This document shows, in pieces, positions 3,884 through 63,407 of a stretch of 64,000 nucleotides of DNA. The position numbers and the translations under genes are program-made. The stretch is taken from assembly GCA_963665275.2 (NCBI GenBank), contig CAXXIN010000007.1, positions 224,001 through 288,000 on the forward strand. Direction: 5' to 3'. The notes under the pieces are model-generated. The model was given only the letters and a program-made list of their open reading frames with translations. It searched no databases and was not told the DNA's origin. The first letter of the stretch is position 1, and every line of letters starts with the position of its first letter. Source of the DNA: Negativicutes bacterium (lineage in GTDB: Bacteria; Bacillota; Negativicutes; UBA1444).

Positions 3884-6535
3884 TTATAGAGTCAAAAAAT
3901 ATTCGATCTGGCCGCGAATGGCCGTCATTTTGTCGGTCACTTCCGCGCGGCGTTCTTTCTGTTGTTCCAGTACTGCTGCCGGTGCTTTGGCAACGAAGCC
4001 GGCATTGGCCAGCTTGCCGTCAATCCGGGTAAGTTCATTTTCAAGAGCCAGCAATTCTTTGTTCATGCGAGCCACTTCTTTTGCCACATCAATCAGGCCT
4101 TTGAGCGGCAGATAGACTTCGATGCCGCTGATAACCCGCGAAACCGAGTTTTCGGGTTTCGCCGCACCCGCCGGAATAATTTCCACCGGGTCCGCCGTCG
4201 CCATCGTCTTGATGAATGGCGTATTTTCCGCCAGAACGGTTGCCAGCTCCTCTGTGGCAGGCTGAAGGATCACTTCGCCTTTGCGGCCTAGCGGCACGTT
4301 CATCTCCGCCCGCATGTTCCGAACCGCTTTGATGGTTTCCATCACGGCGCCCATCTGTGCTTCCGCGGTCTCATCGATTCGGTCCGGTTCCGCCTGCGGC
4401 CAGGCCGCACGCACGATGCTGCCTGCTTCATGCGGCAGATGTTCGCGGATTTCTTCACTGATAAATGGCATGAATGGATGCAGCAGCCGCATTGTCCGCT
4501 CCAGAATGTAAGCCAGGACATATTGGGCCGTATGGCGGCCAGTCGCGCCCTCTTTGTTGTAGAGCCGGGGTTTGGCCAGCTCGATGTACCAGTCGCAGAA
4601 CTCGCCCCAGATGAAATCATACAGCATCCGGGCCGCTTCGCCCAGCTCGAACTTCTCCATGTTCTCGGTCACGCCGGACACCGTCTGCGCATAGCGCGAC
4701 AGGATCCAACGGTCGATGAGGGTCAGTTCGCCGCAGGGCGTTTCAGGATCAAAATCCTCGAGGTTCATGAGCACGAACCGCGAAGCATTCCATATCTTAT
4801 TGGCAAAGTTGCGGCTCGACTCCACCCGCTCCCAGTAAAAACGCATATCGTTGCCGGGGGTGTTGCCTGTCACCAAGGTGAAGCGCAGTGTGTCCGCCCC
4901 GTTCTTTTCGATGACTTCCAGCGGATCAATGCCGTTGCCGAGCGATTTCGACATCTTGCGTCCCTGCGAATCGCGGACCAGTCCGTGGATGAACACGTGA
5001 CGGAACGGTACCTCGTGCATGAATTCCATCCCGGTGAACATCATCCGGGCCACCCAGAAGAAGATGATGTCATAGCCCGTCACCAGCACGCTGGTCGGAT
5101 AATAGCGGGCCAGTTCCTTCGTCTGATCCGGCCACCCCATAGTCGAAAACGGCCACAGAGCCGAACTGAACCAGGTATCCAGCACATCAGGGTCCTGTTC
5201 GATGGCCCCGCCGCAGTGCGGGCAAGAGGTAGGATCCTGACGCGATACGATTGTTTTGCCGCAATCCTGACAGTACCAGGCGGGAATCCTGTGTCCCCAC
5301 CAGATCTGCCTCGAGATACACCAGTCGCGGATGTTTTCCAGCCAGTTCATGTAAGTCTTCGTAAACCGTTCAGGCACGAACTCGGTCCGCCCTGCCCGGA
5401 CCACCTCCATCGCCGGTTCGGCCAGCGGCTGCATCCGCACGAACCACTGCTTGGACACAAGCGGCTCAACAACCGTGTTGCAGCGTTGGCAATGACCCAC
5501 GGCATGCGCATGCTCGTCGATCTTCACCAGATAACCGGCCGCGTCCAGGTCAGCGATGAGTTTTTTGCGGCACTCGTAGCGGTCCAGCCCGGCATAGGCT
5601 TCGCCCGCCTCGGCCGTCATCGCTCCATCATTGCCGATGACCCGGAGGGTAGGCAAATTGTGACGCTGACCCATTTCAAAGTCGTTCGGATCATGCGCCG
5701 GAGTCACTTTCACCGCACCGGTACCAAAGGCAGGGTCAACATAGTCGTCCGCGATAATCGGCAGAATGCGTCCCACTAGCGGCAAAACGAGATTTTTCCC
5801 CACTACCGCCGTGTAGCGTTCATCGGCAGGATTCACCGCCACGCCCGTATCTCCGAGAATCGTCTCCGGTCGGGTGGTAGCCACGGTTACGAATTGCGTC
5901 GGATCATCCTGCAGCGGATAACGCACATGATAGAGCTTGCCGGCGGAATCTTCGTGTTCCACTTCGATGTCCGACAGCGCCGTATTGCAACGAGGGCACC
6001 AGTTGGTGATCCGGTCGCCCTGATAGATCAGTCCTTTTTCGAACAGGCTTACGAATACCTCACGCACGGCCTTCGAACAGCCTTCATCCATCGTGAAGCG
6101 TTCCCTCTCCCAATCGCAGGATGCGCCCAAACGTTTCAGCTGGTTAGTGATGCGATCTCCATATTGGTTCTTCCATTCCCATACCCGTTCGATGAATTTA
6201 TCACGGCCGATATCATAACGGGAGATTCCCTCTTTGGCCAACACTTCTTCCACCTTGATCTGCGTGGCGATTCCAGCATGGTCGCAGCCAGGCATCCACA
6301 AGGTATCGTAGCCCTGCATCCGCCGCCAGCGAATCAGGATATCCTGCAGGGTATTGTCCAGAGCATGCCCCATGTGCAACTGACCTGTAACATTGGGCGG
6401 GGGAATGACGATGCTGTAGTGCTTTCCTTCTGCCGTCGGCTCCGCATGAAACACCCGGTCTTCTTCCCATTTTTTATACCATTTGGTTTCCACCGTCGCC
6501 GGATCATATACTGTTGGAATATTTTCGCGCGTCAT
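3884..6535 (-). CDS. valS: Valine--tRNA ligase
   Basis: PPPNVTGQLHMGH (HIGH), KMSKS, DWCISRQIWWGH; T-box leader. Confidence 0.99.
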   Translation of the reverse strand: MTRENIPTVYDPATVETKWYKKWEEDRVFHAEPTAEGKHYSIVIPPPNVTGQLHMGHALDNTLQDILIRWRRMQGYDTLWMPGCDHAGIATQIKVEEVLAKEGISRYDIGRDKFIERVWEWKNQYGDRITNQLKRLGASCDWERERFTMDEGCSKAVREVFVSLFEKGLIYQGDRITNWCPRCNTALSDIEVEHEDSAGKLYHVRYPLQDDPTQFVTVATTRPETILGDTGVAVNPADERYTAVVGKNLVLPLVGRILPIIADDYVDPAFGTGAVKVTPAHDPNDFEMGQRHNLPTLRVIGNDGAMTAEAGEAYAGLDRYECRKKLIADLDAAGYLVKIDEHAHAVGHCQRCNTVVEPLVSKQWFVRMQPLAEPAMEVVRAGRTEFVPERFTKTYMNWLENIRDWCISRQIWWGHRIPAWYCQDCGKTIVSRQDPTSCPHCGGAIEQDPDVLDTWFSSALWPFSTMGWPDQTKELARYYPTSVLVTGYDIIFFWVARMMFTGMEFMHEVPFRHVFIHGLVRDSQGRKMSKSLGNGIDPLEVIEKNGADTLRFTLVTGNTPGNDMRFYWERVESSRNFANKIWNASRFVLMNLEDFDPETPCGELTLIDRWILSRYAQTVSGVTENMEKFELGEAARMLYDFIWGEFCDWYIELAKPRLYNKEGATGRHTAQYVLAYILERTMRLLHPFMPFISEEIREHLPHEAGSIVRAAWPQAEPDRIDETAEAQMGAVMETIKAVRNMRAEMNVPLGRKGEVILQPATEELATVLAENTPFIKTMATADPVEIIPAGAAKPENSVSRVISGIEVYLPLKGLIDVAKEVARMNKELLALENELTRIDGKLANAGFVAKAPAAVLEQQKERRAEVTDKMTAIRGQIEYFLTL

Positions 6536-6575: not shown

Positions 6576-6820
6576 TAAAAAAAGCCCTTCCATCCCAAAT
6601 TGCTGGGACGAAAGGACATGCTTCCGCGGTACCACCCGATATTCCTGCCACTTCAGCAGGCTCTTTGCAGTCGTAACGGGACTAACCGGCAGGACTTACT
6701 CTAGATTTCAGTCTTGCAGCTCCAGGATGACTTTCACGTGACCACTCGCCATGGAACCTCACAGCCAAGGGTTCCTTCTCTGGTTGGCTATCGTCCGTTA
6801 CTCTTCCCTTCATCGCCAAT
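6576..6820 (-). ncRNA. T-box riboswitch leader of valS
   Basis: GGTGGTACCGCG T-box (6625-6636), AGTA/GCTG stem I motifs, candidate Val specifier GUC (6729-6731), U-tailed terminator before valS. Confidence 0.93.
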
Positions 6821-6906
6821 GCTCATGAAGTTGTATTCCCAATATATCCATCCACCGCGTTTTTGTCAAGTTGCGCGGCGAATCGTGATAGGTTCTGTAG
6901 GTTTTT

Positions 6907-16209: not shown

Positions 16210-16284
16210 TGGAGCGGAAAACGAGATTCGAACTCGCGACCCTCGCCTTGGCAAGGCGATGCTCTACCGCTGAGCTACTTCCGC
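16210..16284 (-). tRNA. tRNA-Gly(GCC)
   Basis: GCGGAAGTAGCTCAG...TTGCCAA...GTTCGAATC...CCA. Confidence 0.98.
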
Positions 16285-16299
16285 ATAGTAACAGAAATT

Positions 16300-16329
16300 A
16301 TTTTACTCTCTGAATGTTTCGTTTGTCAA
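16300..16329 (-). promoter_or_regulatory. sigma-A promoter for tRNA-Gly/tig
   Basis: TTGACA-18 nt-TAAAAT just upstream of the tRNA. Confidence 0.65.
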
Positions 16330-16336
16330 GACTTCT

Positions 16337-16447
16337 TTATTGGTGCGCCAACAGCCACTGTACCAAAACTGCGAGTCCTACCAGGACCCATACCAGCATT
16401 CAGGGACGGCAATAATTCTTCACGAACTCACCGATGCGAGCAAACAT
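16337..16447 (-). CDS. Candidate 36-aa membrane selenoprotein (CxxU), or a small gene with a nonsense mutation
   Basis: AGAGGAG RBS; MFARIGEFVKNYCRP(UGA)MLVWVLVGLAVLVQWLLAHQ-stop; hairpin GGGUCCU-GGU-AGGACUC whose loop starts 17 nt after the UGA. Confidence 0.55.
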
Positions 16448-16672
16448 GGCGTCCAACTCCTCTTTTGATTTGCAAAATTTCATACAGCTTCTTTCAAATT
16501 ATATATGAGGTAGTCAGGGATCACAATAGAGCCTCACGTTAAATTTAAGAGGCTGTTTTATGCTGGCGTTGACTCTTTTCATAATAAATTGGAAGGAATT
16601 AGAGCAAAGTGAGGCGAAGAATATTCTATTATCGAATATCAAAATAAATCAAACAGATGGGAAGGTGGAAAA

Positions 16673-17794
16673 ATGTCCCTGCGCGGAAAAATTCAGTGGC
16701 TATCATTTGTCTTGGTTCTCTTACTAGCAACCACAGTGCCTATGCAATCGACTGCAAATGCCTGCTCTTTCATCCAAGTCGTCGCCCAAGACGGAACCCG
16801 GATTACCGGTCGAACCATGGAGTTCGGCGTTGATATGAAACCGGCATGGGTGGTGACGCCCGCGGGAAAGGAGTTTACCAGCCCTGCGCCGGAAGGATAC
16901 CGGGGACTAGCCTGGAAAACCAAATACGGTTCTGTGGCAGCTCATAACTTTGGTGAGCAAACCATGGCGCTGGACGGAATGAATGAAAAAGGCCTGGTCG
17001 TCAGTGGACTCTGGTATGAAAACGACATGAAGTGGAATGATCCGGCCGATTCCAGCGGCAAGCCGGTTCTATCCCATGCCTTATTGATATCCTGGCTGTT
17101 GGGGAATTTCGAAACGACGGCCGAAGTCGCGAAAGCCGTCAAATCAGTCACCGTTTATGGGCAGCCTATCGCTTCGATGGGAGGAGCAATCCCCCCTCTG
17201 CACTTCGCCGCGCAAGACGCTTCAGGCGGCTCTATCGTCATTGAATGGGATCGTGGCGCCGTCAACGTTTATGATAACCCTCTGGGTATCATGACCAACG
17301 CGCCTAACTTTCCTTATATGATGACGAATCTGCGAAACTATGCCGGCCTCAATGCGGAGCAATGGAGTGCAACTCAATTCAATGGGGTCAAGGTTGTTCC
17401 AACGGGTCATGGAGCCGGCATGTTCGGCTTGCCCGGCGATATCACCCCACCCAGTCGATTCGTTCGGCTTGCCGTTCTGCGGCAATTTGCCGACCCGGCT
17501 CCCGATGCGGCCAATGCGCTGAAACTCGCGCGCCATCTGCTGAACTCCGTCTATATCACGCGGGGAACCATCGTGGACAGGAATGCAACCGGTGCGGTAA
17601 CGGCAGCGGAAAGCACCCAGTGGACGGCCTATTACGACCTGACCAACCGGGCGCTCTACTTTCAAACCTATGACAATTCGACCTTGCGAAAAATCGACCT
17701 GAAAGCGATTGATTTCAAAAGCGCCAATCATCAATCCATCAATTTGTCCTATGAAAACGAAACGATCATTGATGTTACAGGCCAAATCAAGTAA
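16673..17794 (+). CDS. Secreted Ntn-hydrolase, choloylglycine hydrolase / penicillin V acylase family
   Basis: Signal peptide ending ANA, then catalytic Cys (CSFIQ); GRTMEF, DGMNEKGL, TNAP, PGDITPPSRF. Confidence 0.92.
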   Translation: MSLRGKIQWLSFVLVLLLATTVPMQSTANACSFIQVVAQDGTRITGRTMEFGVDMKPAWVVTPAGKEFTSPAPEGYRGLAWKTKYGSVAAHNFGEQTMALDGMNEKGLVVSGLWYENDMKWNDPADSSGKPVLSHALLISWLLGNFETTAEVAKAVKSVTVYGQPIASMGGAIPPLHFAAQDASGGSIVIEWDRGAVNVYDNPLGIMTNAPNFPYMMTNLRNYAGLNAEQWSATQFNGVKVVPTGHGAGMFGLPGDITPPSRFVRLAVLRQFADPAPDAANALKLARHLLNSVYITRGTIVDRNATGAVTAAESTQWTAYYDLTNRALYFQTYDNSTLRKIDLKAIDFKSANHQSINLSYENETIIDVTGQIK

Positions 17795-17971: not shown

Positions 17972-18055
17972 TGGTGCGGGCGAGAGGACTTGAACCTCCA
18001 CGAGTTGCCCCGCCAGATCCTAAGTCTGGTGCGTCTGCCGTTCCGCCACGCCCGC
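17972..18055 (-). tRNA. tRNA-Leu(TAG)
   Basis: GCGGGCGTGGCGGAA...ACTTAGGAT, long variable arm, GTTCAAGTC...ACCA. Confidence 0.97.
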
Positions 18056-21915: not shown

Positions 21916-23595
21916 TCACGGCTTGATTTCAGCACTTTCCAGAGGGCACTTCAGGTTGTAGGCGCTCACCACCCGGTTACGTCCGGAGTTTTTCGCCTGA
22001 TACATGGCTTTGTCCGCCAGAGCGATGAGTGAAGATGGCGACTCTCCCCTGGATGGCACCATCGAAGCTACCCCAAGGCTGATCGTAACACACCGGCTTG
22101 GCGCCTCGACGTTTGCGATCTGCATGCCTTCCACTCGTTTCCTGATTTTTTCGGCGACAATCATGGCGCCGGCCAAATCCGTATCCGGCAATACAACGGT
22201 AAACTCCTCGCCGCCATATCGGGCAGCAAGGTCCGTGACCCGTTTGATGCTTTTATCCAACACGCCGGCAACATCCCTCAAGCAGTCATCACCGCTCTGA
22301 TGCCCGTAAGTGTCATTATACAGCTTGAAAAAATCGATGTCGGCCATGATAAGGGATAGCGACTTTTGTTGCCGCAACCCTATCCGCCATTCCCTTTCAA
22401 GGGATTCATCAAAATAACGGCGGTTTGCAATGCCTGTCAGACCGTCTACCAAGGTAAGTCGGTGAAGTTCTTCATTTAGGGCTTCGAGTTCTCCGTTCAT
22501 GGCTTCCAGTTCCGCATTCTGCACAGTCAGCTTTTCATTGGCGCTATCCAGCTCCTTGGTACGCTCTTCCACCTTACGATCCAAATTTTCATTGCCTTCC
22601 CGCAACCTTTTCTCCAGTAAAATCAGCAGCCAGCACGCTCCGAGCAAAAATAGGCTCTCCACGGTTGCAGACCCATAGTATTCACTTCGGCGTTGATAAA
22701 AGGGTTTCAACACCTCTGTTTCTTGTTCAGAGATTACCAGGACTATGGGGTATTCCGGCATCCGAAAATAGCTGATGAAACGACGGACATTGTCAATGGC
22801 CGAAGCAGCAGTATAAAATCCCCGTTCAGATTGTTGTAAATGCTTGTATAAGCTGGCCCCGGCAATATTCATCCCCGCAGAGAATTCATCACCCATCTGC
22901 CTCGCCAGCACGTTGCCGTCCATGTCTTGTATGGCAATTGTTGCGCCCTTTCCCAAGTTCATTTGGCGAAATATTTTCGTGAAATACAATGGATCGACGG
23001 CGGCAACTACAACTCCGCCAAAGCTTCCATCCGGCTTATTCAAACGATAACTGAGATGAAAGGCCCAAACCATACTTCCCTGGAATACTTGTTCTGGAAC
23101 AGCTCTCGATATAAGCAACAATTGAAGGTCACGTTCCCGGTGTTTCAGAAAATATTCCCGATAATTCCCATTTTCGTTTAATTGTTCGGGGTTGGAACTG
23201 ACAAAGATTTCTCCCTTTTCATCCATAACGGAAATATGCAACACCGGAAGAGATTTCGTAGAATAAATACGCGTTATTGATTCAGGCCTGATCAACCCAT
23301 TTTTTTCATACTCCTGCTTCAGCGAACCCAAAACGTCATCAATGTTTTCAAAATTGCGCCGGATATTTTCATCGTAGGCTAACAGCAGGTTGGCTGAGGC
23401 TTCATTGGTTTTCTGAATGTCCTGCTGGTATTCGTGATCAATAAGCGTCAAAAAATGAAACCAAACACCGCTGACAGCTATAAGCGTCGTGACAGCAATA
23501 ATAGCGCTTATTCTCCCATATCCAAACAAGGTCCTTTTATTATTGTATGGCGCCTTTCGCGCATCTTGCATGGAGTCACCTCGATTATTTCTCAT
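21916..23595 (-). CDS. dCache-sensor diguanylate cyclase
   Basis: Two TM, Cache-like periplasmic region, coiled coil, DGLTGIANRR, RxxD (RVTD) and GGEEF. Confidence 0.93.
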   Translation of the reverse strand: MRNNRGDSMQDARKAPYNNKRTLFGYGRISAIIAVTTLIAVSGVWFHFLTLIDHEYQQDIQKTNEASANLLLAYDENIRRNFENIDDVLGSLKQEYEKNGLIRPESITRIYSTKSLPVLHISVMDEKGEIFVSSNPEQLNENGNYREYFLKHRERDLQLLLISRAVPEQVFQGSMVWAFHLSYRLNKPDGSFGGVVVAAVDPLYFTKIFRQMNLGKGATIAIQDMDGNVLARQMGDEFSAGMNIAGASLYKHLQQSERGFYTAASAIDNVRRFISYFRMPEYPIVLVISEQETEVLKPFYQRRSEYYGSATVESLFLLGACWLLILLEKRLREGNENLDRKVEERTKELDSANEKLTVQNAELEAMNGELEALNEELHRLTLVDGLTGIANRRYFDESLEREWRIGLRQQKSLSLIMADIDFFKLYNDTYGHQSGDDCLRDVAGVLDKSIKRVTDLAARYGGEEFTVVLPDTDLAGAMIVAEKIRKRVEGMQIANVEAPSRCVTISLGVASMVPSRGESPSSLIALADKAMYQAKNSGRNRVVSAYNLKCPLESAEIKP

Positions 23596-24368: not shown

Positions 24369-26749
24369 GTTACCCTAAGCCAGCAAGTCGCCCTACTGAC
24401 TCGGCTTCAAAACCGGACTTGACAGTTTCCCGTCATCCGGCTCCTCAACTTTCCATACTTTCTGAAGAGCGGCTCCTATTTCGACAATGCTCATGTGCCA
24501 GTTGACTGATCTCCCGTTGTCTACCATTCTTACTTTTGCCGATTCGCTCCATGACGGCTACCGGTTCCGACATCCGGGTAAAGTACAAACCACATATCGC
24601 GCAGCATCCCTTTTGTTTCTTGAGAAGCCTTGCGACGTAATTGTCCAGTTCCGGATGCCGCCCCATCCGAGTGGCCCAGTACAACCAGTCCCCATCATAA
24701 GGACTGCGTTTTCTGTCCACTTTGATGTGACGACGAATCGGTGTTTCACCGTGCAGGTACAGGGTCGCCCCCTCCGAAGAACGGAATTGCCATCGCTTGC
24801 CGTTATGATGCCAATACTTTCGGTAGATCCATTGCTTCGCTTTGTTTGGGTGTCTGCGTTTCATCCAGGCCCACAGCTTTTCCCACAGAACGTGCTGCAA
24901 TTTGCTGAACATTCTAGATGAAGCCTGGGTGGAATAGTAGCGACACCAGCCCCGAATAATCGGGTTGAGTATGCGAATCAGTTTCTCCTGTGTACCGGCT
25001 TGGAGGCTGTCGATGACTTCTCCCATTCTATCTTGGTGGCGAAGGACACCATCCTTGCTGGGACGAATCAGTGGGAGAAACGTTAATCGCTCCTCACTGT
25101 TCGTATACCGTCGGGTATGGGTTTGCCCCGCTGGTACCTGTTGTATATGGAAGCCGAGGAAATCAAATCCCGGCGGCTGCCCGTTGATCGCTTCCAAGGT
25201 ATGGACGATGCGGGTTTTGGTCGGACTTAATTCCAGACCCATCGTTGCCAGCCATTTCTCCGTAACTTTGCGGAGATTATGGATGACTTCCAAGTCGCGA
25301 TGCATGATCACAAAGTCGTCCGCGTACCGGATGACCCGAGGCCACCACGTCACGTCTTCTCCTGCAATCATACGGCGATAAGGGATTTGACGCTTGATCT
25401 CCTCTTCCAACCCATGCAGCGCGATGTTTGCCAAGAGCGGAGAAATCACCCCTCCTTGCGGCGTCCCTCGCTCTGCCCGCTGGAAGACGTCTCCTTCCAT
25501 TACTCCAGCTTTTAACCACCTTCGCACGATGCGACGCACCCGTGGGGCTGCGTCCATCTTATTGAGTAGCGCGCGGTGGTCGATGCGGTCGAAACATTTT
25601 GCAATGTCCGCATCCAGTACATATTTCGGTTGATGAGCAATTTGTCCGAATATGTATTGAATCGCATCATGGCAGCCCCTGCCGGGACGGAAGCCGTAGC
25701 TGTTTGGTTCAAACCGGGCTTCCCATTCCGGCTCCAGAGCCTGCTTGACCATCGCCTGTGCCGCCCGGTCTTGAAGGACCGGGATTCCCAGCGCTCGTCG
25801 CTCCGTTTTCCCCGGTTTGGGGATGTATATACGGCGCACGGCCTGTGGCACAGGAATCTGCTTGAGCTGTTTGGCCAACTGGATTTTGTCTTCCTGGCTG
25901 ATGGAGGCTATCTTATCCACGCCGGGCGTTTTCTTCCCGGCGTTGTCTTGAGCCACGCGCCGCACGGCGAGTAACCGGGCGGGCCACGAGGCGATAAGCA
26001 GCCGCTGCAGCCGTTGAACATTTCGCTTGTCGCCCTTTAGAGTCGCTTGGTAGATTCGTTTTTGAAGCTTGAAAACCGCCCGCTCGACTTGCGGCCAGCA
26101 AATGGTCTTCCATTCATCCATCGGCAGTTGTGCCGTGTCCATGACATATCCACTCCTACTATCGAAATACCATTTGGAAAACCGGGGCCACGTCTGCTTA
26201 TCCGTCGGCTTTCCCGACGGCATTTGCTTCTTGGCCCATCCTGCCCTCCGTTGGCATACGGTTGACTGCCTGCTCCGAAAAGAATCCGGAGAGCCAGCGG
26301 AGAGTTACCCCGTTCCTGAATATCGTTTTGCGTAAAGGGTAGAACCGCACTATCCACCGGGTTTCTGTGAGTGTGGAACCGGTCGCAACTCGAGACGCCG
26401 GCCTCGTATCCTTGTCCGTTTTGGACCAAGCCCTTCGGTCCGCGTTGGGGGCTTGTTCTGGTTGACGGTGGTTCACGCATGCGTTCGCTTTCGCTGTTCT
26501 TGCTTTACCTGCTTGCGGGAGTTCCCGAGTCGGACTCCGGGTTACCCGCGTTTCGCCCATGCTGGCACCGTTCGGTTTGTCACTTCCGCACAGTGTGGGC
26601 GATGATGTTCCCTGTCCACCACAGGGGCTGGGAATTGAGTTTCCTCGCGCCCAGCTTCGATATTCAAGTTGTCGCTGAAGGCCTTCTGACCTTCACTGCC
26701 TCCCATCCCTTCAAACCCATGGCTTGAATTTCAGGAGAACGGGTCGCAC
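24369..26749 (-). mobile_element. Group II intron (IIB, chloroplast-like class) inserted in yvrJ
   Basis: 5' GTGCGACCCG at 26749; domain V GAGCCGGATGACGGGAAACTGTCAAGTCCGGTTT, domain VI and ...GTAAC 3' end at 24369; candidate EBS1 CGAGUU (26387-26392) pairs with exon end AACTTG. Confidence 0.93.
24445..26142 (-). CDS. ltrA: Group II intron reverse transcriptase/maturase (RVT_N, RT, X, degenerate HNH)
   Basis: VFKLQKRIY, GKKTPGVD, SYGFRPGR, GTPQGGVISPLL, RYADDF, RGWCRYY, KQKGCCAICG; start moved to MDTAQL after AGGAG. Confidence 0.95.
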   Translation of the reverse strand: MDTAQLPMDEWKTICWPQVERAVFKLQKRIYQATLKGDKRNVQRLQRLLIASWPARLLAVRRVAQDNAGKKTPGVDKIASISQEDKIQLAKQLKQIPVPQAVRRIYIPKPGKTERRALGIPVLQDRAAQAMVKQALEPEWEARFEPNSYGFRPGRGCHDAIQYIFGQIAHQPKYVLDADIAKCFDRIDHRALLNKMDAAPRVRRIVRRWLKAGVMEGDVFQRAERGTPQGGVISPLLANIALHGLEEEIKRQIPYRRMIAGEDVTWWPRVIRYADDFVIMHRDLEVIHNLRKVTEKWLATMGLELSPTKTRIVHTLEAINGQPPGFDFLGFHIQQVPAGQTHTRRYTNSEERLTFLPLIRPSKDGVLRHQDRMGEVIDSLQAGTQEKLIRILNPIIRGWCRYYSTQASSRMFSKLQHVLWEKLWAWMKRRHPNKAKQWIYRKYWHHNGKRWQFRSSEGATLYLHGETPIRRHIKVDRKRSPYDGDWLYWATRMGRHPELDNYVARLLKKQKGCCAICGLYFTRMSEPVAVMERIGKSKNGRQREISQLAHEHCRNRSRSSESMES

Positions 26750-34404: not shown

Positions 34405-34480
34405 TGGTGACCCACCCGCGACTCGAACGCGGGACTCCCTGATTAAAAGTCAGGTGCTCTACCGACTGAGCTAGTGGGTC
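34405..34480 (-). tRNA. tRNA-Lys(TTT)
   Basis: Anticodon loop CTTTTAA, GTTCGAGTC, CCA. Confidence 0.98.
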
Positions 34481-34483
34481 AAG

Positions 34484-34559
34484 TGGCTGGGGCGGCTGGA
34501 CTCGAACCAACGCATGCGGGAGTCAAAGTCCCGTGCCTTACCAGCTTGGCGACGCCCCA
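34484..34559 (-). tRNA. tRNA-Gln(TTG)
   Basis: TGGGGCGTCGCCAAG...CTTTGAC...GTTCGAGTCC...GCCA. Confidence 0.98.
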
Positions 34560-34597
34560 AAGGCAGTTGTCTTGGGGAAATATTTGGGAAAATTATA

Positions 34598-34671
34598 TGG
34601 CTGGGGCGGATGGATTCGAACCACCGATGCGGGAGTCAGAGTCCCGAGCCTTACCGCTTGGCTACGCCCCA
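34598..34671 (-). tRNA. tRNA-Gln(CTG)
   Basis: TGGGGCGTAGCCAAG...CTCTGAC...GTTCGAATCC...GCCA. Confidence 0.97.
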
Positions 34672-34694
34672 ATAAGAGGTAAGTTTGGTAAGTT

Positions 34695-34771
34695 TGGGGT
34701 GACTGATGGGGATCGAACCCACGCATAACGGAACCACAATCCGCCGTGTTAACCACTTCACCACAGTCACC
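34695..34771 (-). tRNA. tRNA-His(GTG)
   Basis: Encoded G-1, anticodon loop TTGTGGT, GTTCGATCC, CCA. Confidence 0.97.
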
Positions 34772-36172: not shown

Positions 36173-37993
36173 TCAACCAACTTTTTGCACCCAACTCCGG
36201 GGATCCGTCTTGCAAAACAAATTAACCAGGAAGGGATCAAACTGGGTGCCGGAACATCGCCGCAGTTCCCGCAGCGCTTCTTCATGGCTTACTGCGGACC
36301 GATAGGGACGGTCGCTCGTCATCGCGTCGTAAGCATCAGCAATCGCCAAAATTCGGCATTCCAAAGGAATATCGTCGCCGGAAATGCCCAGAGGGTATCC
36401 CTGCCCATCCCACCACTCCTGATGTTTGAGAATCCATTCTGCGATTGGACGAGCCGCGTTGACAGACAAAGCGATCCGATGGCCGATCTCGCTGTGGCGC
36501 TGTATTTCCTGCAGCTCCAAGGCATTGAGCGAACCTTGTTTGAAGAGAATTTTGTCAGGAATGCCAACCTTGCCGAGGTCATGGTATTGCGCTAATAGCC
36601 GCAAATGCTGCACCCTTTCTTCCGGCAATCCAAGTTCCTCCGCCAGATGGAGACAAAGATCAGTCACTCGTTGAGTATGCCCCTCAGCAAAAAAATCTCG
36701 CTGTTCCATTACCCGGACAACGTTGCGGGTGATGGACTCCCTGATCTGCAGACTTCGTTTATTCTTCTCCCGGTACATGTTATTGTCAGCCTCTCTGAAC
36801 AACTGGGTCAGATTCGCATTCTTGCTGAAGCTATACGCCACCCCGGTTGAAATGCTCAATAAAAATTCGTCATTTTTCTCGTTATCGGCATCAATGGAAT
36901 CCTGAAGTCTGACAAGGGCTTTTTCCACCGTTTCTTGCGAGATACGGGACAATAATATCGCAAATTCATCGCCGCCGATGCGCGCAACCACGTCCCCTGC
37001 GCGGAAAGTTTTCGTCAACAACTCAGCCGCCTTTTTTATCAACCGGTCGCCAAGCAAATGTCCGAAGCTGTCGTTATAGAGTTTCAGTCCGTCAACGTCA
37101 CATACAATCACAGCCAACGGAGCATAACGTCCATCGTTGAGCCGACGCAGCTCTTCCTGGAAATAAGCGCGGTTATAAAGCCCTGTCAGCGAATCACGCA
37201 GGCTGATATTGATCAATTTTTCTTCCATTTGTTTTCGTTCGGATATGTCTGTGAGCGAGCCCGCCATCCGGATCGGAACTCCACGCTCATTCCAGAGCGC
37301 CTGCCCACGGTCCAGCACCCATTTATATTGCCCATCCTTGGAGAGGCAACGATATTCAGCTTCGTAATTCGGCGTCAGGCGCTGCAGGTGCTCGGCAAGC
37401 TTTTGTGTTACGGCAGGCAAATCTTCCGGATGCACAGTCGCCAGGAATTCGTCCCGGTTTGCAGGCCCCCCGCCCGCTTCGAAGCCTAACATTTCGCTGC
37501 AACGCTCTGATTGAAAACTCTCGTTCGTCAGCACATTCCAGTCCCAAATACCGTCTTTGTTCCCTCGCAATGCCAACTGCCACCGTTCCTCTTCTTGAGC
37601 CAGAATCGCATTCGCTTTTTCCAGGGAACGTATCTGCATATTGATTTTTTCGGCCATACGGGCGAAAGTATAAAAAAGTTCACGCACTTCCAGCGGCCCC
37701 TGCGATTGGGCGCGCGCTTCCATTTGATAGTCAAAGTTCCCTTCCCGGATCGCCCTGGCTGCTTCAGTCAACTGGCGAATCGGAACGATTACCCAGTAGA
37801 ACCCCCCCAGAATCAAAAGAACGCCAAGCAAAACAAGCCCTGCCGCCCCTGCCAGCGCAACGCTCATCTGAACATCCGGAACCGATTCACCGGTTTGTTG
37901 AATGCTGTGGAAGAAAAAATTTCCCAGCAGCAGTGCCGGCAACGAAACCAGCAAAAATCCCCAAAAAAGCAATTGAGACCGCAAGGTCTTCAC
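36173..37993 (-). CDS. HAMP-PAS-GGDEF-HD-GYP signalling protein
   Basis: Two TM, HAMP, PAS (DGIWDW), RIGGDEF, HDLGK and DGQGYP. Confidence 0.93.
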   Translation of the reverse strand: MKTLRSQLLFWGFLLVSLPALLLGNFFFHSIQQTGESVPDVQMSVALAGAAGLVLLGVLLILGGFYWVIVPIRQLTEAARAIREGNFDYQMEARAQSQGPLEVRELFYTFARMAEKINMQIRSLEKANAILAQEEERWQLALRGNKDGIWDWNVLTNESFQSERCSEMLGFEAGGGPANRDEFLATVHPEDLPAVTQKLAEHLQRLTPNYEAEYRCLSKDGQYKWVLDRGQALWNERGVPIRMAGSLTDISERKQMEEKLINISLRDSLTGLYNRAYFQEELRRLNDGRYAPLAVIVCDVDGLKLYNDSFGHLLGDRLIKKAAELLTKTFRAGDVVARIGGDEFAILLSRISQETVEKALVRLQDSIDADNEKNDEFLLSISTGVAYSFSKNANLTQLFREADNNMYREKNKRSLQIRESITRNVVRVMEQRDFFAEGHTQRVTDLCLHLAEELGLPEERVQHLRLLAQYHDLGKVGIPDKILFKQGSLNALELQEIQRHSEIGHRIALSVNAARPIAEWILKHQEWWDGQGYPLGISGDDIPLECRILAIADAYDAMTSDRPYRSAVSHEEALRELRRCSGTQFDPFLVNLFCKTDPRSWVQKVG

Positions 37994-38576: not shown

Positions 38577-39647
38577 TCATTCAAGGTTCTTTTCATTTTC
38601 AGGCAACCCCTGCCAAACGATCCGCAAGGTTTCTCTTTTGTCTGACCCTACCTGCGGCAGCAACCTGACTCGATAAGCTTTGCCAATTTCATTCAACATC
38701 GCGTATCCAATTTCCCAACGCCTCCGGTCGTCGGAGGACATCACCGTGGGAAAGCGATGTTCGAAGATCACGAAGCAAGGACCGGCTTCTTTGGACTCGA
38801 CTGAAACGGCCAACCGCATAGGGGTACTGGTGTCAGCTCCCTGAAGATCTACAATGATTTTAAAGGTCATCTCCAAAAAGCCATAGTAACCACAAAGCAA
38901 CGGGTCATCGTTTTCGCGGCGTTGAATTATCAATCGGTCCTCACAAACTTTGTTTATTCCTGAAATAATCTGCGCTATCGAACGACACTCAAAAACGGTT
39001 GGCAAAATACTCATATACATTAAATGTATTTTTTCGATAAGATCGAGATGTCCCGTTGCACTTTCAATCGTGTCTGAAGAATGAATCGAACACATTTCCA
39101 GATGTTTTTTCCAGAAGGAAAACATCCAATGGTTAAGGTTTTTCAGACCCGCCAGGTCTTTTTTTTCATTAACCATCTTTTGTTCCATAACGTGAAGAAT
39201 GTGCAAATAGGCTTGATTTTTGTGAACCAGTCCCTCCCGAAGGTCGTCGCGCTCACTCTCAAGGTTAAAGCGCTCGATTGCCTGACGAACAGCAGCCAGT
39301 AATTCCGCCTCCATTTGCCAAGGTTTCGAAATGAACTGAAAAACTTCACCTTGGTTGATCGTCGCTAACACCTGAGAAAGCTGTGTATACCCCGACAATA
39401 CCATCCTGATAATCTTCGGTTGCTTCTCCCTGACAATTTTCAACAACATCAGCCCATCCATTACCGGCATTCGCATGTCCGTAACAATGACACTGACCGA
39501 GCGCTCCTCAATGATTTTGAGCGCCTCCTGTGCAGAACCGGCGAACAGCGCTTCAAAGGGTTCATCGATCACCGCTCTGCGGATTGCCGCCAAAATATGC
39601 GATTCATCATCCACAAAAAGAACCACATTCTTATTTGTTGCCATCAA
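38577..39647 (-). CDS. Response regulator with degenerate kinase-like C-terminus
   Basis: FVDDE, TDMRMP, SKPW; C-terminus has no clear catalytic boxes. Confidence 0.85.
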   Translation of the reverse strand: MMATNKNVVLFVDDESHILAAIRRAVIDEPFEALFAGSAQEALKIIEERSVSVIVTDMRMPVMDGLMLLKIVREKQPKIIRMVLSGYTQLSQVLATINQGEVFQFISKPWQMEAELLAAVRQAIERFNLESERDDLREGLVHKNQAYLHILHVMEQKMVNEKKDLAGLKNLNHWMFSFWKKHLEMCSIHSSDTIESATGHLDLIEKIHLMYMSILPTVFECRSIAQIISGINKVCEDRLIIQRRENDDPLLCGYYGFLEMTFKIIVDLQGADTSTPMRLAVSVESKEAGPCFVIFEHRFPTVMSSDDRRRWEIGYAMLNEIGKAYRVRLLPQVGSDKRETLRIVWQGLPENEKNLE

Positions 39648-40705
39648 AGATCACCTGCACGCCTTAGCATTCCCGTAGCTACTAGTTCCTGGTTAGTAAA
39701 ACATTCAACCACATCCGCATCAAAATGACTGCCGACATCCTGTTTGAGAATCGCCAACACTTCTTGTCGCGGCACTCCTTTGCGATAAATGCGACCCGAT
39801 ATCAATGCATCGTACGCATCGGCCACTGCCAGAATTCTTGCTTCCAGCAGAATTTCCGCCGCCTTCAGATGGTACGGGTATCCTGAGCCATCATATTTTT
39901 CATGATGTTGCAAAACAATTTCGGCGGCATCATTCCACAAGCCCAACTCTCGCAATATTTCCGCGCCATAGATGGGATGCTCTTTCATAAAAGCATATTC
40001 GCTTTCATCCAACCGTCCCGCCTTATAAAGGATTTGGTCACGAATAGCGATCTTGCCGATATCATGAAAGACTCCGGCATATTCAAGGTTCTGCTGCCGC
40101 TGCTCCGACAGCTGCATCGATCGCGCCACCTGAACAGCATATTGGCTCACACGCAAGCTGTGTTGCAGCAGTTCACTGTCTTTGACCTGGATGATTTTTT
40201 TCAGCGCATTGGCCTCATTCTCTATCGTTTGTTTCATCCGCGCATGCGAATGTTCCAGCAACACCTTCCAAGTCTCTTTCTCGCACAGGCTTTGCGCGAG
40301 AATAAGTTCTCGATCCAACGCGTCCTGCCGAAACTGAAACGCCGCCTTCACCGCATCAATAAGTTCCTCATCTTCCCAGGGTTTGCTGATGTATTGAAAA
40401 ATTTGTCCGTTGTTGATCGCCGAAATAACAACATCAATGTCTGAATAACCGGAAATGAGCAACCGCACAGTACTCGGCGATAGCGCGCGCGCCCGCAGCA
40501 AAAGCTCAACTCCCGACATTTTCGGCATCCGTTGGTCACAAATGAGAAGCGCCGGAGGAGTAAGCTTCAAAATTTGGAGGGCCTCCTCAGCATCCGGCGT
40601 GCTGCGTACTTGATACCCGGCAAAGACTAATGTTCTGGTGATCGCCCGCAGCACATGCTCTTCATCGTCAACGATCAATACCATTTTATTTTCTGACACT
40701 GACAT
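39644..40705 (-). CDS. Response regulator with HD-GYP phosphodiesterase domain
   Basis: VDDE, DQRMP, HDIGK, HHEKYDGSGYP. Confidence 0.93.
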   Translation of the reverse strand: MSVSENKMVLIVDDEEHVLRAITRTLVFAGYQVRSTPDAEEALQILKLTPPALLICDQRMPKMSGVELLLRARALSPSTVRLLISGYSDIDVVISAINNGQIFQYISKPWEDEELIDAVKAAFQFRQDALDRELILAQSLCEKETWKVLLEHSHARMKQTIENEANALKKIIQVKDSELLQHSLRVSQYAVQVARSMQLSEQRQQNLEYAGVFHDIGKIAIRDQILYKAGRLDESEYAFMKEHPIYGAEILRELGLWNDAAEIVLQHHEKYDGSGYPYHLKAAEILLEARILAVADAYDALISGRIYRKGVPRQEVLAILKQDVGSHFDADVVECFTNQELVATGMLRRAGDL

Positions 40706-41884
40706 TCACTCCTTGCTCTCATCGCGCAGCCATTGTTCAAAGTGTTGTTGAGTAGTACTTATTTGCCGGAATGCCTCGGGATTCAACATTTGAGGCAACT
40801 TTGGCAAGATCGCCTTCCAGGCGTAATGACTGGCCAAATGGACCGAAGCTACAGCCTCGGTTTCGATAACGGCGCTATGCAAGGGTGTATCGTGAAACAA
40901 GGCACATTCCACAATCGGGTACGGAAGTCCCCACCAATCCAATAGATGACCCCCTAATTCGGCATGAGTAATCCCAAACGCTTCCTTTTCCAAAGCCGAT
41001 AACGACAAGAGATTACCGGATTGCAAGTGCTTTTGGATTATTATCTTGCATTTTTCCGGGAAATAGTGCAAAAGCATGACAAATCCAATATTATGAAGCA
41101 ACCCCGCAGTTGCCAAATTATCAGGCAGTCTTTTGCCAAGAAGCTTGGTGTAAATTGCAGCCGTAAGCATGTTGGTGTGAGTTGCGTGACGCGCCAAACG
41201 CGACAGATTGAAAGGGGGAACCTGAATGCGGACCGTCTGCAGAAGATTGCAGGACAATACAATAGACTTGACAACCGGTAATCCCAAATACGTGATTGCC
41301 TGAATAATCGAGCCGGTCTTGATATTATAAAACGCGGAATTAACGACTCGGAGAACGGACGCCGCCACGGTCGGGTCTGTCTCAATCACGCGCGCTATGG
41401 CGCTGACATCGGCATCTTGTTCTATGAGACGGCACACTGAATTGTATACGCCGGTGATCATCGACAAATTTTCAAGTTTATTGGCAAATTCAAGAATGGA
41501 CAAGCTGCGATACATCTCGCGGGCTTCGAATATTCGTCCGATTTTATCTTTGAATTCTGCTCCGACCCATGGTTTCAACAGGTAGAGGCTACTGGACCCA
41601 TCAATGATGGTCTCAAAAAGTTCATTTTCGCTTGCGTAGCCGCTCAAAATAATTCGGGTTGTCCAAGGGAACCGTTCTTTCACTTTACGCAAGAACTGGT
41701 GCCCATCCATCACCGGCATCCGCATATCGGAAATAACGACATCAATAGGTTGGCTTTCCAAGATTTTCAGCCCTTCTTCGCCGCTTTCCGCCAGAGAAAC
41801 TTCAAAATCGCTATCGAAAAAGAGGCGGTCCAGGGCCGTGAGAATTGATTTTTCATCATCAACAAAAAGTATGCTCTTGCCCAC
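40706..41884 (-). CDS. Response regulator with HDOD domain
   Basis: VDDE, DMRMP, LRVVNSAFY, AGLLHNIG, HAELGGHLLDWWGLP. Confidence 0.92.
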   Translation of the reverse strand: MGKSILFVDDEKSILTALDRLFFDSDFEVSLAESGEEGLKILESQPIDVVISDMRMPVMDGHQFLRKVKERFPWTTRIILSGYASENELFETIIDGSSSLYLLKPWVGAEFKDKIGRIFEAREMYRSLSILEFANKLENLSMITGVYNSVCRLIEQDADVSAIARVIETDPTVAASVLRVVNSAFYNIKTGSIIQAITYLGLPVVKSIVLSCNLLQTVRIQVPPFNLSRLARHATHTNMLTAAIYTKLLGKRLPDNLATAGLLHNIGFVMLLHYFPEKCKIIIQKHLQSGNLLSLSALEKEAFGITHAELGGHLLDWWGLPYPIVECALFHDTPLHSAVIETEAVASVHLASHYAWKAILPKLPQMLNPEAFRQISTTQQHFEQWLRDESKE

Positions 41885-41890
41885 GTTGCA

Positions 41891-43135
41891 TCAACTCCGT
41901 TTCACTTCAGACACTACAGGAAGTTTAATCCAAAAAGTCGCTCCGGCCCCATATTCACTCTCCACCAACAATTCACCGGCAAATTTCTTGATGATGCCAT
42001 AAGCAATGCTGAGCCCAAGCCCAGTGCCGCTGCCAATTTCTTTGGTGGTAAAAAACGGGTCAAATATCCGGTTGATATGATCGGGTTTGATCCCCGGTCC
42101 ATCATCGGTAATCCGGCATACAACATAGTCACCTTCCGAATAGGTATCAATCGCGATCTTACCGAGTTCACCCCGAGACTGGCCTTTGATGGCTTGAACC
42201 GCATTATGCAGAACATTGATCATTACCTGCGCGACTTGACCTTTATCGCAAAGCGCCAGGCTTGCCGCTGTTTGCTTCTTCTCAACAACCGCAACATATT
42301 TAATCTCATTCTTCATGATCAACAACGCATCTTCCACGATCTGATTCATGTCATTGCTTGTGGCCGCGTCTTCGTTGCCGCTTCTGGCAAAATTTCGCAA
42401 ACTCCGGACAATTTTTGCAACCCGTTCTACTCCATCCCGCGATTCTGTGATAATCGGCGTAAAATCCGCCAAAACCCGATCAAGCTTACCTTTCGTTTCG
42501 TTTTCAAGAATATGTTGCTGGAGGAGTACCAGTTGTTCACGCGAAACATCGGTGTCAAGCACCAGCCGTCCCAGAGTGCGGTATTGTTCAATAATATCCT
42601 TGGCCTTATCCAGATATTTCGCCATAGTTTCCAGATTACTACTGATGAATCCGACCGGATTGTTGATTTCATGCGCCACCCCAGCAGCCAATTCGCCCAA
42701 CGACATCAACTTTTCGGCTTGCACGAGATACGACTGGGTTTGTTTCAACTTCAAAACATTTTTCCGTGTTTTGGCCGCAGCCTGCATCCTGACAACAAAC
42801 TCCGTGGGTTCAATTGGTTTGTTAATATAGTCATTGGCGCCATTTTCAAAGCATTGGCGAAAACTTTCCTTATCAGCGAGACCGGTAAACATGACGACTT
42901 GTATATCCTGGTATTTTTCTTCACTCCGGATGATTTTCAATAAAGCGATGCCATCAATCTTCGGCATGATGATGTCCAACAACACAATGCCGACATCTTC
43001 CGAAGCAAGAATATTCATTACAGCATCCGGGTCATTGCACAATATAACCCCTTGATTTTCGACATGCGCCTCCAAAAGGTCACGGGCAACCGCCAAATTG
43101 AATTTCTCATCATCAACTACCAGTATTTTCATCAT
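41891..43135 (-). CDS. Hybrid REC-histidine kinase (NtrB-type)
   Basis: N-terminal REC, AHEINNP, DDGPGI, PFFTTK, GTGLGL. Confidence 0.93.
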   Translation of the reverse strand: MMKILVVDDEKFNLAVARDLLEAHVENQGVILCNDPDAVMNILASEDVGIVLLDIIMPKIDGIALLKIIRSEEKYQDIQVVMFTGLADKESFRQCFENGANDYINKPIEPTEFVVRMQAAAKTRKNVLKLKQTQSYLVQAEKLMSLGELAAGVAHEINNPVGFISSNLETMAKYLDKAKDIIEQYRTLGRLVLDTDVSREQLVLLQQHILENETKGKLDRVLADFTPIITESRDGVERVAKIVRSLRNFARSGNEDAATSNDMNQIVEDALLIMKNEIKYVAVVEKKQTAASLALCDKGQVAQVMINVLHNAVQAIKGQSRGELGKIAIDTYSEGDYVVCRITDDGPGIKPDHINRIFDPFFTTKEIGSGTGLGLSIAYGIIKKFAGELLVESEYGAGATFWIKLPVVSEVKRS

Positions 43136-43174
43136 CCAACTCCTCAATGCCGCTCAACTTTCCCGAAAAAGACT

Positions 43175-62261: not shown

Positions 62262-63407
62262 TTAACCCAATACACTGGAATTCCCCCCAGAGTTTTTAGC
62301 TCGGTACAACGCATCATCAGCTATACGCATCAATTCTTCTCCATTGCGTACCGCGTCATTGGATAAAGCCAAACCAATGCTTATCGTCGAATGCAATGAA
62401 TGGCCTTGCCAAGAAACCGTAAGTTCTTCGATTTTCTGCCGCAACCGCTCTGCCGTATTCATCAAACTCACTTCATCACAATTTTGCACTACTACTACAA
62501 ATTCATCTCCTGCATAGCGAAAAACGAAATCACTAGTTCGTACAGCATCGCTAATTTCCTGTCCAAATCGGATCAAAAAACGATCACCTGCTTGATGCCC
62601 AAATTGGTCGTTGATCTCTTTGAAATCATCGATATCAATTAACAGAAATCCAATGCATTCTGCCCTTGATGACATCAATGTTTCAATCCGATTATCCATC
62701 GCTCGCCGATTAGCAATTCCCGTTAGTGTGTCGGTTAATGCTTGTCTTTGGACGTCCAGTCCCAAGCGATGTGATATGAGCCAAAATATGCAGAGAGACA
62801 TGCCTGTGCAGAAACATAGCATTCCTAAAGTGATCCACTCATGCACAAATCCCGGGTTCGTTAAATCAGTCTGTTGCCCCTGAATCATGGTAAATATGGC
62901 GCGAAAAATCATTAGGCCTGTAAACAAGGCAAGCAAGGTCATCATAAAACGCCGCGGAGCATTTTCGTCATCGTCACTCACTCGCAGAATTTTCATGCTG
63001 ATCAAAGCTAGGAATGCTGCAGAAACGCTATAAACAACGATCCGATTATTAATCGAAGGAGTAATATATGTCATGAAAAGGAACGATGTAATCATAAGGC
63101 CCCATACTGTCCAAGCTGCTCTCCTCAAATACCCGGGTTTCTCCATATATTGAGCGATCCCTTCCTGGGTTGCAATTTGGCTACCCAAGATACATGCTCC
63201 TGCGATAATAATGGAGAAAAAATCAGATATCACGCCTCGAAGGGCCAGTAAAACCATGCTCGTTCCTGATAAAACATGGCTTAAACCCCAATACCCAATA
63301 ATTGTACGTAATGATTTTGCATTACGCCACGCCAACGTAAAAATAATCGCATTGACTAATGTGATTGCCGCAGTTGCGATAAATAGCGTCCTGAAATCCA
63401 AGTACAT
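62262..63407 (-). CDS. Multi-TM diguanylate cyclase (AGDEF variant)
   Basis: About 7 TM, TDTLTGIANRR, RTSD I-site, FRYAGDEF. Confidence 0.9.
   Translation of the reverse strand: MYLDFRTLFIATAAITLVNAIIFTLAWRNAKSLRTIIGYWGLSHVLSGTSMVLLALRGVISDFFSIIIAGACILGSQIATQEGIAQYMEKPGYLRRAAWTVWGLMITSFLFMTYITPSINNRIVVYSVSAAFLALISMKILRVSDDDENAPRRFMMTLLALFTGLMIFRAIFTMIQGQQTDLTNPGFVHEWITLGMLCFCTGMSLCIFWLISHRLGLDVQRQALTDTLTGIANRRAMDNRIETLMSSRAECIGFLLIDIDDFKEINDQFGHQAGDRFLIRFGQEISDAVRTSDFVFRYAGDEFVVVVQNCDEVSLMNTAERLRQKIEELTVSWQGHSLHSTISIGLALSNDAVRNGEELMRIADDALYRAKNSGGNSSVLG

Follow-up and report, generated by a model that had tools for sequence, protein, structure and literature searches.

How should an in-frame UGA be read when it sits in the middle of a gene of only 36 codons? 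The question is raised by a candidate small gene on the minus strand of a 64,000-nucleotide (nt) stretch from a Negativicutes bacterium (GenBank assembly GCA_963665275.2, contig CAXXIN010000007.1, positions 224,001 to 288,000). We call this whole stretch the window and number positions within it, unless a locus is named. Read directly from the window sequence, the open reading frame (ORF) consists of a short head, the internal UGA and a hydrophobic tail, with a hairpin shortly after the UGA. The original prediction had taken these parts for an unannotated minimal membrane-anchored selenoprotein, in which the UGA stands for selenocysteine (Sec), a Cys three codons earlier completes a C-x-x-U motif, and the hairpin serves as a selenocysteine insertion sequence (SECIS). 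From a comparison with related loci we conclude, with moderate confidence, that the element most likely encodes a candidate tail-anchored CxxU membrane selenoprotein of 34-36 amino acids belonging to a new family.

All the parts named in that prediction (the Shine-Dalgarno (SD) sequence, the ATG, the UGA, the Cys three codons earlier, the hydrophobic tail, the TAA stop and the hairpin) are present on the minus strand where it had placed them (Table 1). The sequence of the claimed hairpin and the spacing of its G-first loop are correct as well: counted from the UGA, the hairpin starts at 10 nt and its loop at 17 nt. An in-frame ATG 12 codons further upstream (16483, giving a 48-codon version) was rejected as a start; since it has no SD and is not kept in the other loci, the ATG at 16447 is the likely one. 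Taken alone, the window sequence does not lift the element beyond chance. In folding, the 63 nt that follow the UGA do not surpass shuffled sequences (z = -0.30, with 65/200 shuffles at least as stable), and a simplified version of the published limits for bacterial SECIS elements, which are loose, is satisfied after 82 of the 2315 TGA triplets in the window. The case therefore rests on comparison.

The comparison set consists of the window and nine loci (L001 to L009), all from metagenome-assembled genomes of related, anaerobic Negativicutes, making 10 sequences in total. The nine contigs are, in this order, DCTI01000238, DATMYT010000422, CAZRQI010000098, JAHDPL010000037, JBGSKE010000072, CAZRLN010000054, CAZYJK010000033, CAZFSM010000036 and CAYLSL010000226. 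The same element is found in 9/9 of these loci (10/10 with the window), each time directly upstream of the promoter of tRNA-Gly(GCC). A GGAGG-type SD can be read 7-9 nt ahead of the start codon in all ten sequences. The start itself is ATG in seven and GTG in two; in L001 the aligned codon is ATT, and an in-frame GTG that abuts the SD lies 9 nt ahead of it (L001:6013-6024). The ATG of L004 and L007 is preceded, two codons upstream, by an in-frame TTG whose distance from the SD is the more favourable. Throughout the set the first half closes with N-[Y/H/F]-C-[R/S]-P, and its residues N11, C13 and P15 are invariant with varying codons (AAT/AAC, TGC/TGT and CCC/CCA/CCT). The hydrophobic tail always ends 18-20 codons past the UGA, which gives ORF lengths of 34-36 codons across the family, and of the 17 residues aligned beyond the UGA, 9 do not vary.

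The internal stop is TGA in all ten sequences, with no TGG or other sense codon at that position. The terminal stop of the same ORF, by contrast, is sometimes TAA and sometimes TGA, and differs even within the pair L003 and L006 with their 97.1% identical tig DNA; stop-codon usage in the window as a whole is TGA 18, TAA 13 and TAG 7 (n=38). Amino acids are preserved in spite of codon changes, with different codons in use for Asn, Cys, Pro, Gln and Leu alike (Q as CAG/CAA, L as CTG/TTG/CTA/TTA). With a tig protein identity of 79-98% among seven of the genomes, synonymous sites are expected to be well mixed, as observed, and the retention of amino acids through different codons indicates that a single frame is translated on both sides of the UGA. 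Two of the three points on which the original prediction depended, a UGA retained by homologs and a conserved frame downstream of it, thus hold in the relatives, the latter with coding-type substitutions. Judged by these sequence comparisons, the small gene is real and conserved. Two other frames were considered and rejected. An antisense ORF (16340-16468, plus strand) would have the variable sites at its first codon positions. A +1 frameshift at CCC-UGA does not agree with the Pro codon being CCA or CCT in three loci, nor with the conserved downstream frame, which is the zero frame.

Searches at the protein level returned a single homolog. An exhaustive phmmer run with the read-through peptide over 1.84 billion representative proteins gave one match, P0002, a protein of 168 residues from a 668-bp contig, and its alignment spans the UGA with W at that position. 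It might be argued that a homolog carrying Trp speaks against Sec. P0002 consists, however, of intergenic and small-ORF DNA of the L006 type (L006:5911-6156) in which three TGAs were translated as W. Being identical to such DNA with every TGA read as W, it is a miscall and no Trp homolog, and we rejected the objection. As an aside, P0002 shows that code-4-style gene calls can imitate a "Trp homolog" of a UGA site.

The nine relatives were obtained from a genome-collection scan seeded by an alignment of the window peptide with P0002; 100 stretches matched, among which the nine were confirmed. Two peptide patterns were used, one of which demanded W (TGG) at the UGA position. As this pattern cannot retrieve TGA loci, all nine entered via the other, M[LV][VI]WVL[VA]GL (M17 to L25). 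Retrieval by a pattern that starts with M means that the invariance of Met17 and of W-V-L-x-G-L is partly forced. Provided that the back-translation was fully degenerate, the invariance of the TGA and of synonymous sites is not forced by the search pattern.

The second line of evidence is the hairpin. Its sequence is the same in all ten apart from the third loop base, which is U in four and C in six, and its minimum free energy (MFE) is -9.2 kcal/mol in eight loci and -8.9 kcal/mol in two. The consensus bacterial SECIS (bSECIS) given in the Fig. 2 legend of PMC13188914 has 3-9 nt in the loop and 4-16 bp in the stem, an MFE of at most -7.5 kcal/mol, a distance of 16-37 nt from UGA to loop and a G within the first two loop positions; the loop mostly reads N1-G-[G/U]-N-N2, with N1 and N2 paired. 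In 10/10 sequences the hairpin falls within all of these limits, having a GGU or GGC loop, a U-A closing pair, a stem of 7-8 bp and 17 nt between UGA and loop. The suspicion of a SECIS-like hairpin is thereby borne out as far as conservation and the published model are concerned. For E. coli, the excerpt of PMC8659212 describes the functional part of the SECIS as a 17-nt upper stem-loop located 11 nt from the UGA.

The hairpin is also constrained beyond what it encodes. Third codon positions are invariant in 5/5 degenerate codons within the hairpin, against 1/23 elsewhere in the ORF (Fisher p = 6.1e-5), which points to a constraint as nucleic acid and not only via the encoded protein. While the distance from the hairpin to the tRNA-Gly promoter varies (~26-80 nt), that from the UGA is fixed; it is thus the reading frame, and not the promoter, that the hairpin is tied to, and on the same grounds a promoter-linked DNA site, with a distance to the -35 that ranges over ~26-80 nt, was set aside as unlikely. 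A lower-stem extension pairing UGAAU with GUNCA was rejected, being neither conserved nor accompanied by compensatory change. No extra copies of the hairpin occur in the window (up to 3 mismatches) or in the loci; it is single-copy in each.

These observations fit together in the following mechanism, in which SelB binding, Sec insertion, membrane topology and chemistry are our interpretation. The strong SD would start ribosomes on 15 codons that encode a short basic amphipathic segment ending in the conserved N-[Y/H/F]-C-[R/S]-P. At the UGA, the 17-nt stem-loop 10 nt downstream would act as a minimal bacterial SECIS and recruit SelB with Sec-tRNA; Sec would be inserted and translation would run on into a membrane helix of 18-20 residues. 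In the product, a C-x-P-U pair would sit where that helix begins, at its N-terminus and on the cytoplasmic side of the membrane, and may form a redox site of the selenenylsulfide type or a chalcogen/metal-binding site. Such a fused topology is sensible, with a basic head (net charge +1 to +2) followed by a helix that has no charged residue in the three sequences computed. An AlphaFold2 model of the fused peptide predicts a helix at residues 3-11, a break at 12 and a second helix at 13-35, at a mean predicted local distance difference test score of 75.6. The long helix of this model has the C-x-P-U motif at its beginning. The model is compatible with fusion but does not separate the hypotheses, and we regard it as weak evidence. 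Overall, a selenoprotein covers the fixed TGA, the C-x-P, the constraint on the hairpin and the fused topology.

A number of observations weigh against Sec insertion. The genes selA, selB and selD were not found among the 58 ORFs of the 64-kb window, nor among the 24/46 ORFs scanned in the fetched flanks of the loci (the 22 left unscanned are the tig/clpP/clpX/lon positions and short frames overlapping tRNAs), and ARAGORN reported no tRNA-Sec among 6 window tRNAs and 29 locus tRNAs. In the portion of the PMC5029168 supplement used here, the Sec trait is given as present in Acetonema longum, Sporomusa ovata and Thermosinus carboxydivorans and as absent from Pelosinus, Selenomonas and Succinispira. 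With such a patchy distribution in Negativicutes, the trait is plausible for this clade but cannot be assumed. Neither a Cys form, nor one with another sense codon, nor a longer fused homolog was found by the exhaustive phmmer search or by word-indexed protein searches. The latter covered proteins of 26-84, 18-84 and 85-2000 amino acids, with the 48-codon version as query for the 26-84 range (40-residue minimum), and only P0002 recurred (85-2000). The lack of Cys homologs is weak evidence, because very short ORFs are often missed by gene finders; at the nucleotide level, relatives that have changed within M17-L25, possible Cys forms included, would escape the peptide pattern.

On the RNA side, no relevant Rfam match appeared, either at gathering thresholds or with the limit relaxed to E <= 10, and although RNAalifold recovers the stem, compensatory changes are seen in 0/14 predicted pairs, since the stem never varies. 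With U or C as the third loop base, the G-U dinucleotide that is important in E. coli is not conserved. A further point concerns L003 and L006. Their small ORFs (L003:168-272 and L006:5998-6102) differ at ~20/105 nt, whereas the surroundings are near-identical (tig DNA as given above, upstream flank 94%, tRNA-Gly identical). The changes are mostly conservative at the amino-acid level (CRPU..VGLAV type against CSPU..AGLVL type), and in the alignment the small ORF stands out as a local divergence hot-spot. Finally, an ATG directly follows the TGA in 10/10 sequences, as a restart of translation would need. Of the minimal membrane-anchored selenoprotein that had been predicted, the conserved TGA, frame and hairpin stand, while the absence of a Cys homolog from the searches and the AUG directly after the UGA count against it.

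Additional searches were largely silent. Nothing above noise was obtained at E <= 10 when four read-through peptides were compared with NCBIfam and Pfam, and blastn of the element against plasmid and phage collections gave no match. A scan of the window and the loci for long frames interrupted by TGA returned only adjacent same-frame genes and out-of-frame noise, which were not compared with family models. No description of this element was found in the literature, in searches that were narrow and hence no proof of its being unpublished; the parts consulted of PMC13449736, PMC3772150 and PMC5609420 contain nothing relevant to it.

The alternative that survives best, though we consider it rather unlikely, is a pair of coupled mini-ORFs. 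Here a 15-residue peptide would end at the UGA and translation would restart at the abutting AUG, yielding a separate hydrophobic peptide of 18-20 residues that may be a small membrane regulator or toxin-like, with the hairpin keeping the second start dependent on the first ORF. The arrangement TGAATG, present in all ten sequences, is what such coupling predicts, and the failure of the protein searches to return a Cys or fused form, together with the absence of the Sec trait from several Negativicutes genera in the consulted part of PMC5029168, is in line with it. A divergence hot-spot as seen between L003 and L006 may also be commoner in small toxin or immunity peptides. The invariance of the ATG is, however, largely forced by the M-first search pattern, and with 9/17 aligned post-UGA residues invariant anyway, an invariant Met carries little weight. 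In none of the 10 loci is there a GGAG, GAGG or AGGA, or an SD-like purine run, in the 15 nt ahead of the second ATG; a restart can occur without an SD, though inefficiently. Coupling moreover gives no reason why the internal stop should be fixed as TGA while the terminal one switches between TAA and TGA, nor for the conserved C-x-P, nor for a hairpin held at synonymous sites in SECIS-like form and position. The second peptide by itself would lack any charged residue that could set its orientation in the membrane. As to a toxin in particular, the element is single-copy and syntenic, has no phage or plasmid match, and shows no promoter-like site on the plus strand of the window between 16150 and 16750.

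Both outcomes might also be combined in one selenium-gated gene with two outputs, which we hold to be doubtful: with Sec-tRNA and SelB available, the hairpin would drive Sec insertion and one fused membrane selenopeptide of 34-36 residues would be made, and otherwise a stop at the UGA and a restart at the AUG would give two peptides. If this were true, the cell would read its selenium status within a tRNA operon beside the tig/clpPX/lon proteostasis genes.

Improbable in our view is recoding or regulation that involves no selenium. The hairpin could stimulate near-cognate read-through of the UGA (as Trp, Cys or Arg), or the ORF could be a TnaC-like stalling leader in which the nascent ...C-x-P slows release at Pro-UGA, and ribosome occupancy would then govern how much transcription reads through from the tRNA cluster upstream into tRNA-Gly/tig/clpPX. 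Pro-UGA is indeed kept in 10/10 sequences, the hairpin would lie at the mRNA entry of a ribosome paused on the UGA, and the element invariably has the tig operon on one side and, on the other, upstream transcription, from tRNA-Leu or from a protein gene that ends 19-46 nt ahead of it. Against these readings, every sequence has a near-consensus promoter between the ORF and tRNA-Gly, so that downstream expression does not need the element, and the coding-type conservation past the UGA requires that this part be translated. As for read-through, we know of no programmed event of this kind described for bacterial chromosomal genes.

Very improbable, lastly, is that the hairpin is an RNA or DNA signal of the tRNA operon (a weak terminator, a processing site or a protein-binding palindrome) and the frames are incidental: a terminator scan does flag the window hairpin (8 pairs, tail CAGTTTTGGT) and five T directly follow the stem in L008 and L009, but the T-run is absent from L001, L003, L004 and L007, a strong SD with a start codon is conserved in 10/10, and it is the third codon positions of one frame that are substituted, different codons preserving the amino acids.

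Table 1. Position of the candidate small gene, its parts and its immediate neighbours. Coordinates refer to the window except where a locus is named.
Feature	Position	Strand	Remark
Shine-Dalgarno sequence AGAGGAG	16457..16463	-	9 nt before ATG 16447-16445
First 15 codons, MFARIGEFVKNYCRP; amphipathic, net charge +2	16403..16447	-	From translation and charge computation
Cys codon three codons before the UGA (C-x-x-U)	16409..16411	-	TGC in 7 loci, TGT in 3
In-frame TGA, candidate Sec codon	16400..16402	-	TGA in 10/10 sequences
ATG abutting the TGA; Met17, or restart codon of a second mini-ORF	16397..16399	-	10/10
20 hydrophobic codons, MLVWVLVGLAVLVQWLLAHQ; predicted membrane helix, zero charged residues	16340..16399	-	
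17-nt hairpin GGGUCCU-GGU-AGGACUC, 7 bp; candidate SECIS minihelix	16373..16389	-	
Final stop TAA	16337..16339	-	
Promoter-like TTGTGA-17-TATAAT upstream of the small ORF	16498..16526	-	10/12 consensus matches; window only
Strong promoter TTGACA-18-TAAAAT of tRNA-Gly/tig, directly after the small ORF	16300..16329	-	11/12 consensus matches
tRNA-Gly(GCC), constant downstream neighbour of the small ORF	16210..16284	-	Followed by tig, clpP, clpX, lon, ysxC
Terminal TGA of the small ORF within the -35 of the tRNA-Gly promoter	L004:5203-5205; L005:4096-4098; L007:4779-4781; L008:6094-6096; L009:2127-2129		

The downstream side of the element is constant. The promoter between the small ORF and tRNA-Gly is conserved in 10/10 sequences, and tig follows tRNA-Gly in all six loci compared. 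In five loci the terminal TGA of the small ORF falls inside the -35 (TTGACA) of this promoter (Table 1), and there ribosomes finishing the small ORF and RNA polymerase at the promoter would share DNA. The upstream side differs from locus to locus. In L002, L004 and L007 the element lies inside a tRNA cluster with the order His-Gln-Gln-Lys-Leu(UAG), small ORF, promoter, tRNA-Gly. The start codon of L002 follows tRNA-Leu at a distance of only 26 nt, which leaves no room for an own promoter at that locus, and the small ORF is likely co-transcribed with the upstream tRNAs. A protein gene ends 19 nt (L008, L009) or 46 nt (L005) ahead of the start codon elsewhere; the gene just before the small ORF in these three loci looks HD-GYP-like by eye at its C-terminus, with no family-model match at E <= 1e-40.

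The neighbour upstream in the window is a gene of the choloylglycine-hydrolase family (16673-17794) that runs in the opposite direction. This divergent gene parts tRNA-Leu from the small ORF. The tRNA genes concerned lie at 17972-18055 and 34405-34770 (minus strand), with Lys and Leu ~16 kb apart, where the relatives have a tight tRNA cluster directly ahead of the small ORF; the cluster in the window seems to have been split by insertions. Two group II introns are recognised on the minus strand by Rfam intron-domain matches (24369-26223 and 60076-61868), with reverse transcriptase/maturase ORFs at 24445-26223 and 60110-61546, and the first of them sits within the region that splits the tRNA cluster. 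Elsewhere in the window, a T-box leader (6601-6822, minus strand, 113 bits) lies upstream of valS (3884-6535). Genes for cyclic di-GMP and two-component signalling are dense (38577-45100, 21916-23595, 36173-37993 and 62262-63407) and comprise several response regulators of the GGDEF and HD-GYP type as well as two histidine kinases.

If Sec is inserted as we propose, the element would represent a new bacterial selenoprotein family within known bacterial Sec decoding. With 34-36 residues it would, to our knowledge, be the smallest selenoprotein known and by a wide margin the shortest proposed. It would also be a rare membrane-anchored case, with little beyond a C-x-P-U on a membrane helix and a minimal 17-nt SECIS, and such a minimal unit could be useful in studies of what SelB and SECIS require and as a compact selenopeptide tag. 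Gene callers and selenoprotein pipelines miss genes of this kind, because both halves fall under ORF length cut-offs and there is no Cys homolog to seed a search. Should the element be a stop-restart pair instead, it would still be a conserved, unannotated small-protein locus, with a hairpin held at synonymous sites in a tRNA operon, and would need its own explanation.

With mok/hok and other type I toxins, in which leader and toxin are coupled in translation, the element shares a very short hydrophobic peptide, whose translation here would depend on an upstream ORF, and mRNA structure near the start. It differs from them in that there is no antisense promoter at the small ORF in the window, the element is single-copy, keeps its place in the chromosome and has no match in the plasmid and phage collections, and the first ORF is conserved at the protein level. 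Leaders of the TnaC type likewise have a short ORF and a conserved Pro followed by UGA; here, by contrast, coding-type conservation continues past the UGA and the genes downstream are served by a strong promoter of their own. The eukaryotic selenoproteins SelK and SelS are also short, with one membrane helix and one Sec, which is an analogy only: their Sec belongs to a cytosolic tail, close to the C-terminus, their SECIS lies within the 3' untranslated region, and they are about three times longer and without sequence similarity to the small-ORF peptide.

As regards the motif itself, thioredoxin-type CxxC sites read CGPC, and the small-ORF peptide resembles them in having a Pro directly before the second chalcogen residue. 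Redox selenoproteins with a CxxU motif include GrdA, AhpD-like proteins, DUF1858 and the CC/Se-motif family (Table 1 of PMC13188914, in the part consulted). Like these, the peptide has a Cys three residues ahead of the Sec position and, in the predicted structure, the motif at the N-terminal end of a helix. Unlike these, it would have no thioredoxin-like or other globular fold, and the helix behind the motif is predicted to span the membrane.

The closest comparison is with bacterial genes in which a Sec-UGA is followed by a SECIS. The small ORF differs from bacterial selenoprotein genes in general by its 34-36 codons, by belonging to no listed family and having no Cys homolog, and by the lack of Sec genes and tRNA-Sec in the host sequence scanned; from the E. 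coli SECIS it differs by a stem without the bulged U and by a loop U that is replaced by C in 6/10 sequences. What it shares with the E. coli fdhF type is a conserved in-frame UGA and a 17-nt stem-loop, at 10 nt from the UGA here against 11 nt there (PMC8659212, in excerpt), and with bacterial Sec-UGA genes more widely a loop that starts with GG and dimensions that fall within the consensus bSECIS limits, as these are given in the consulted parts of PMC13188914.

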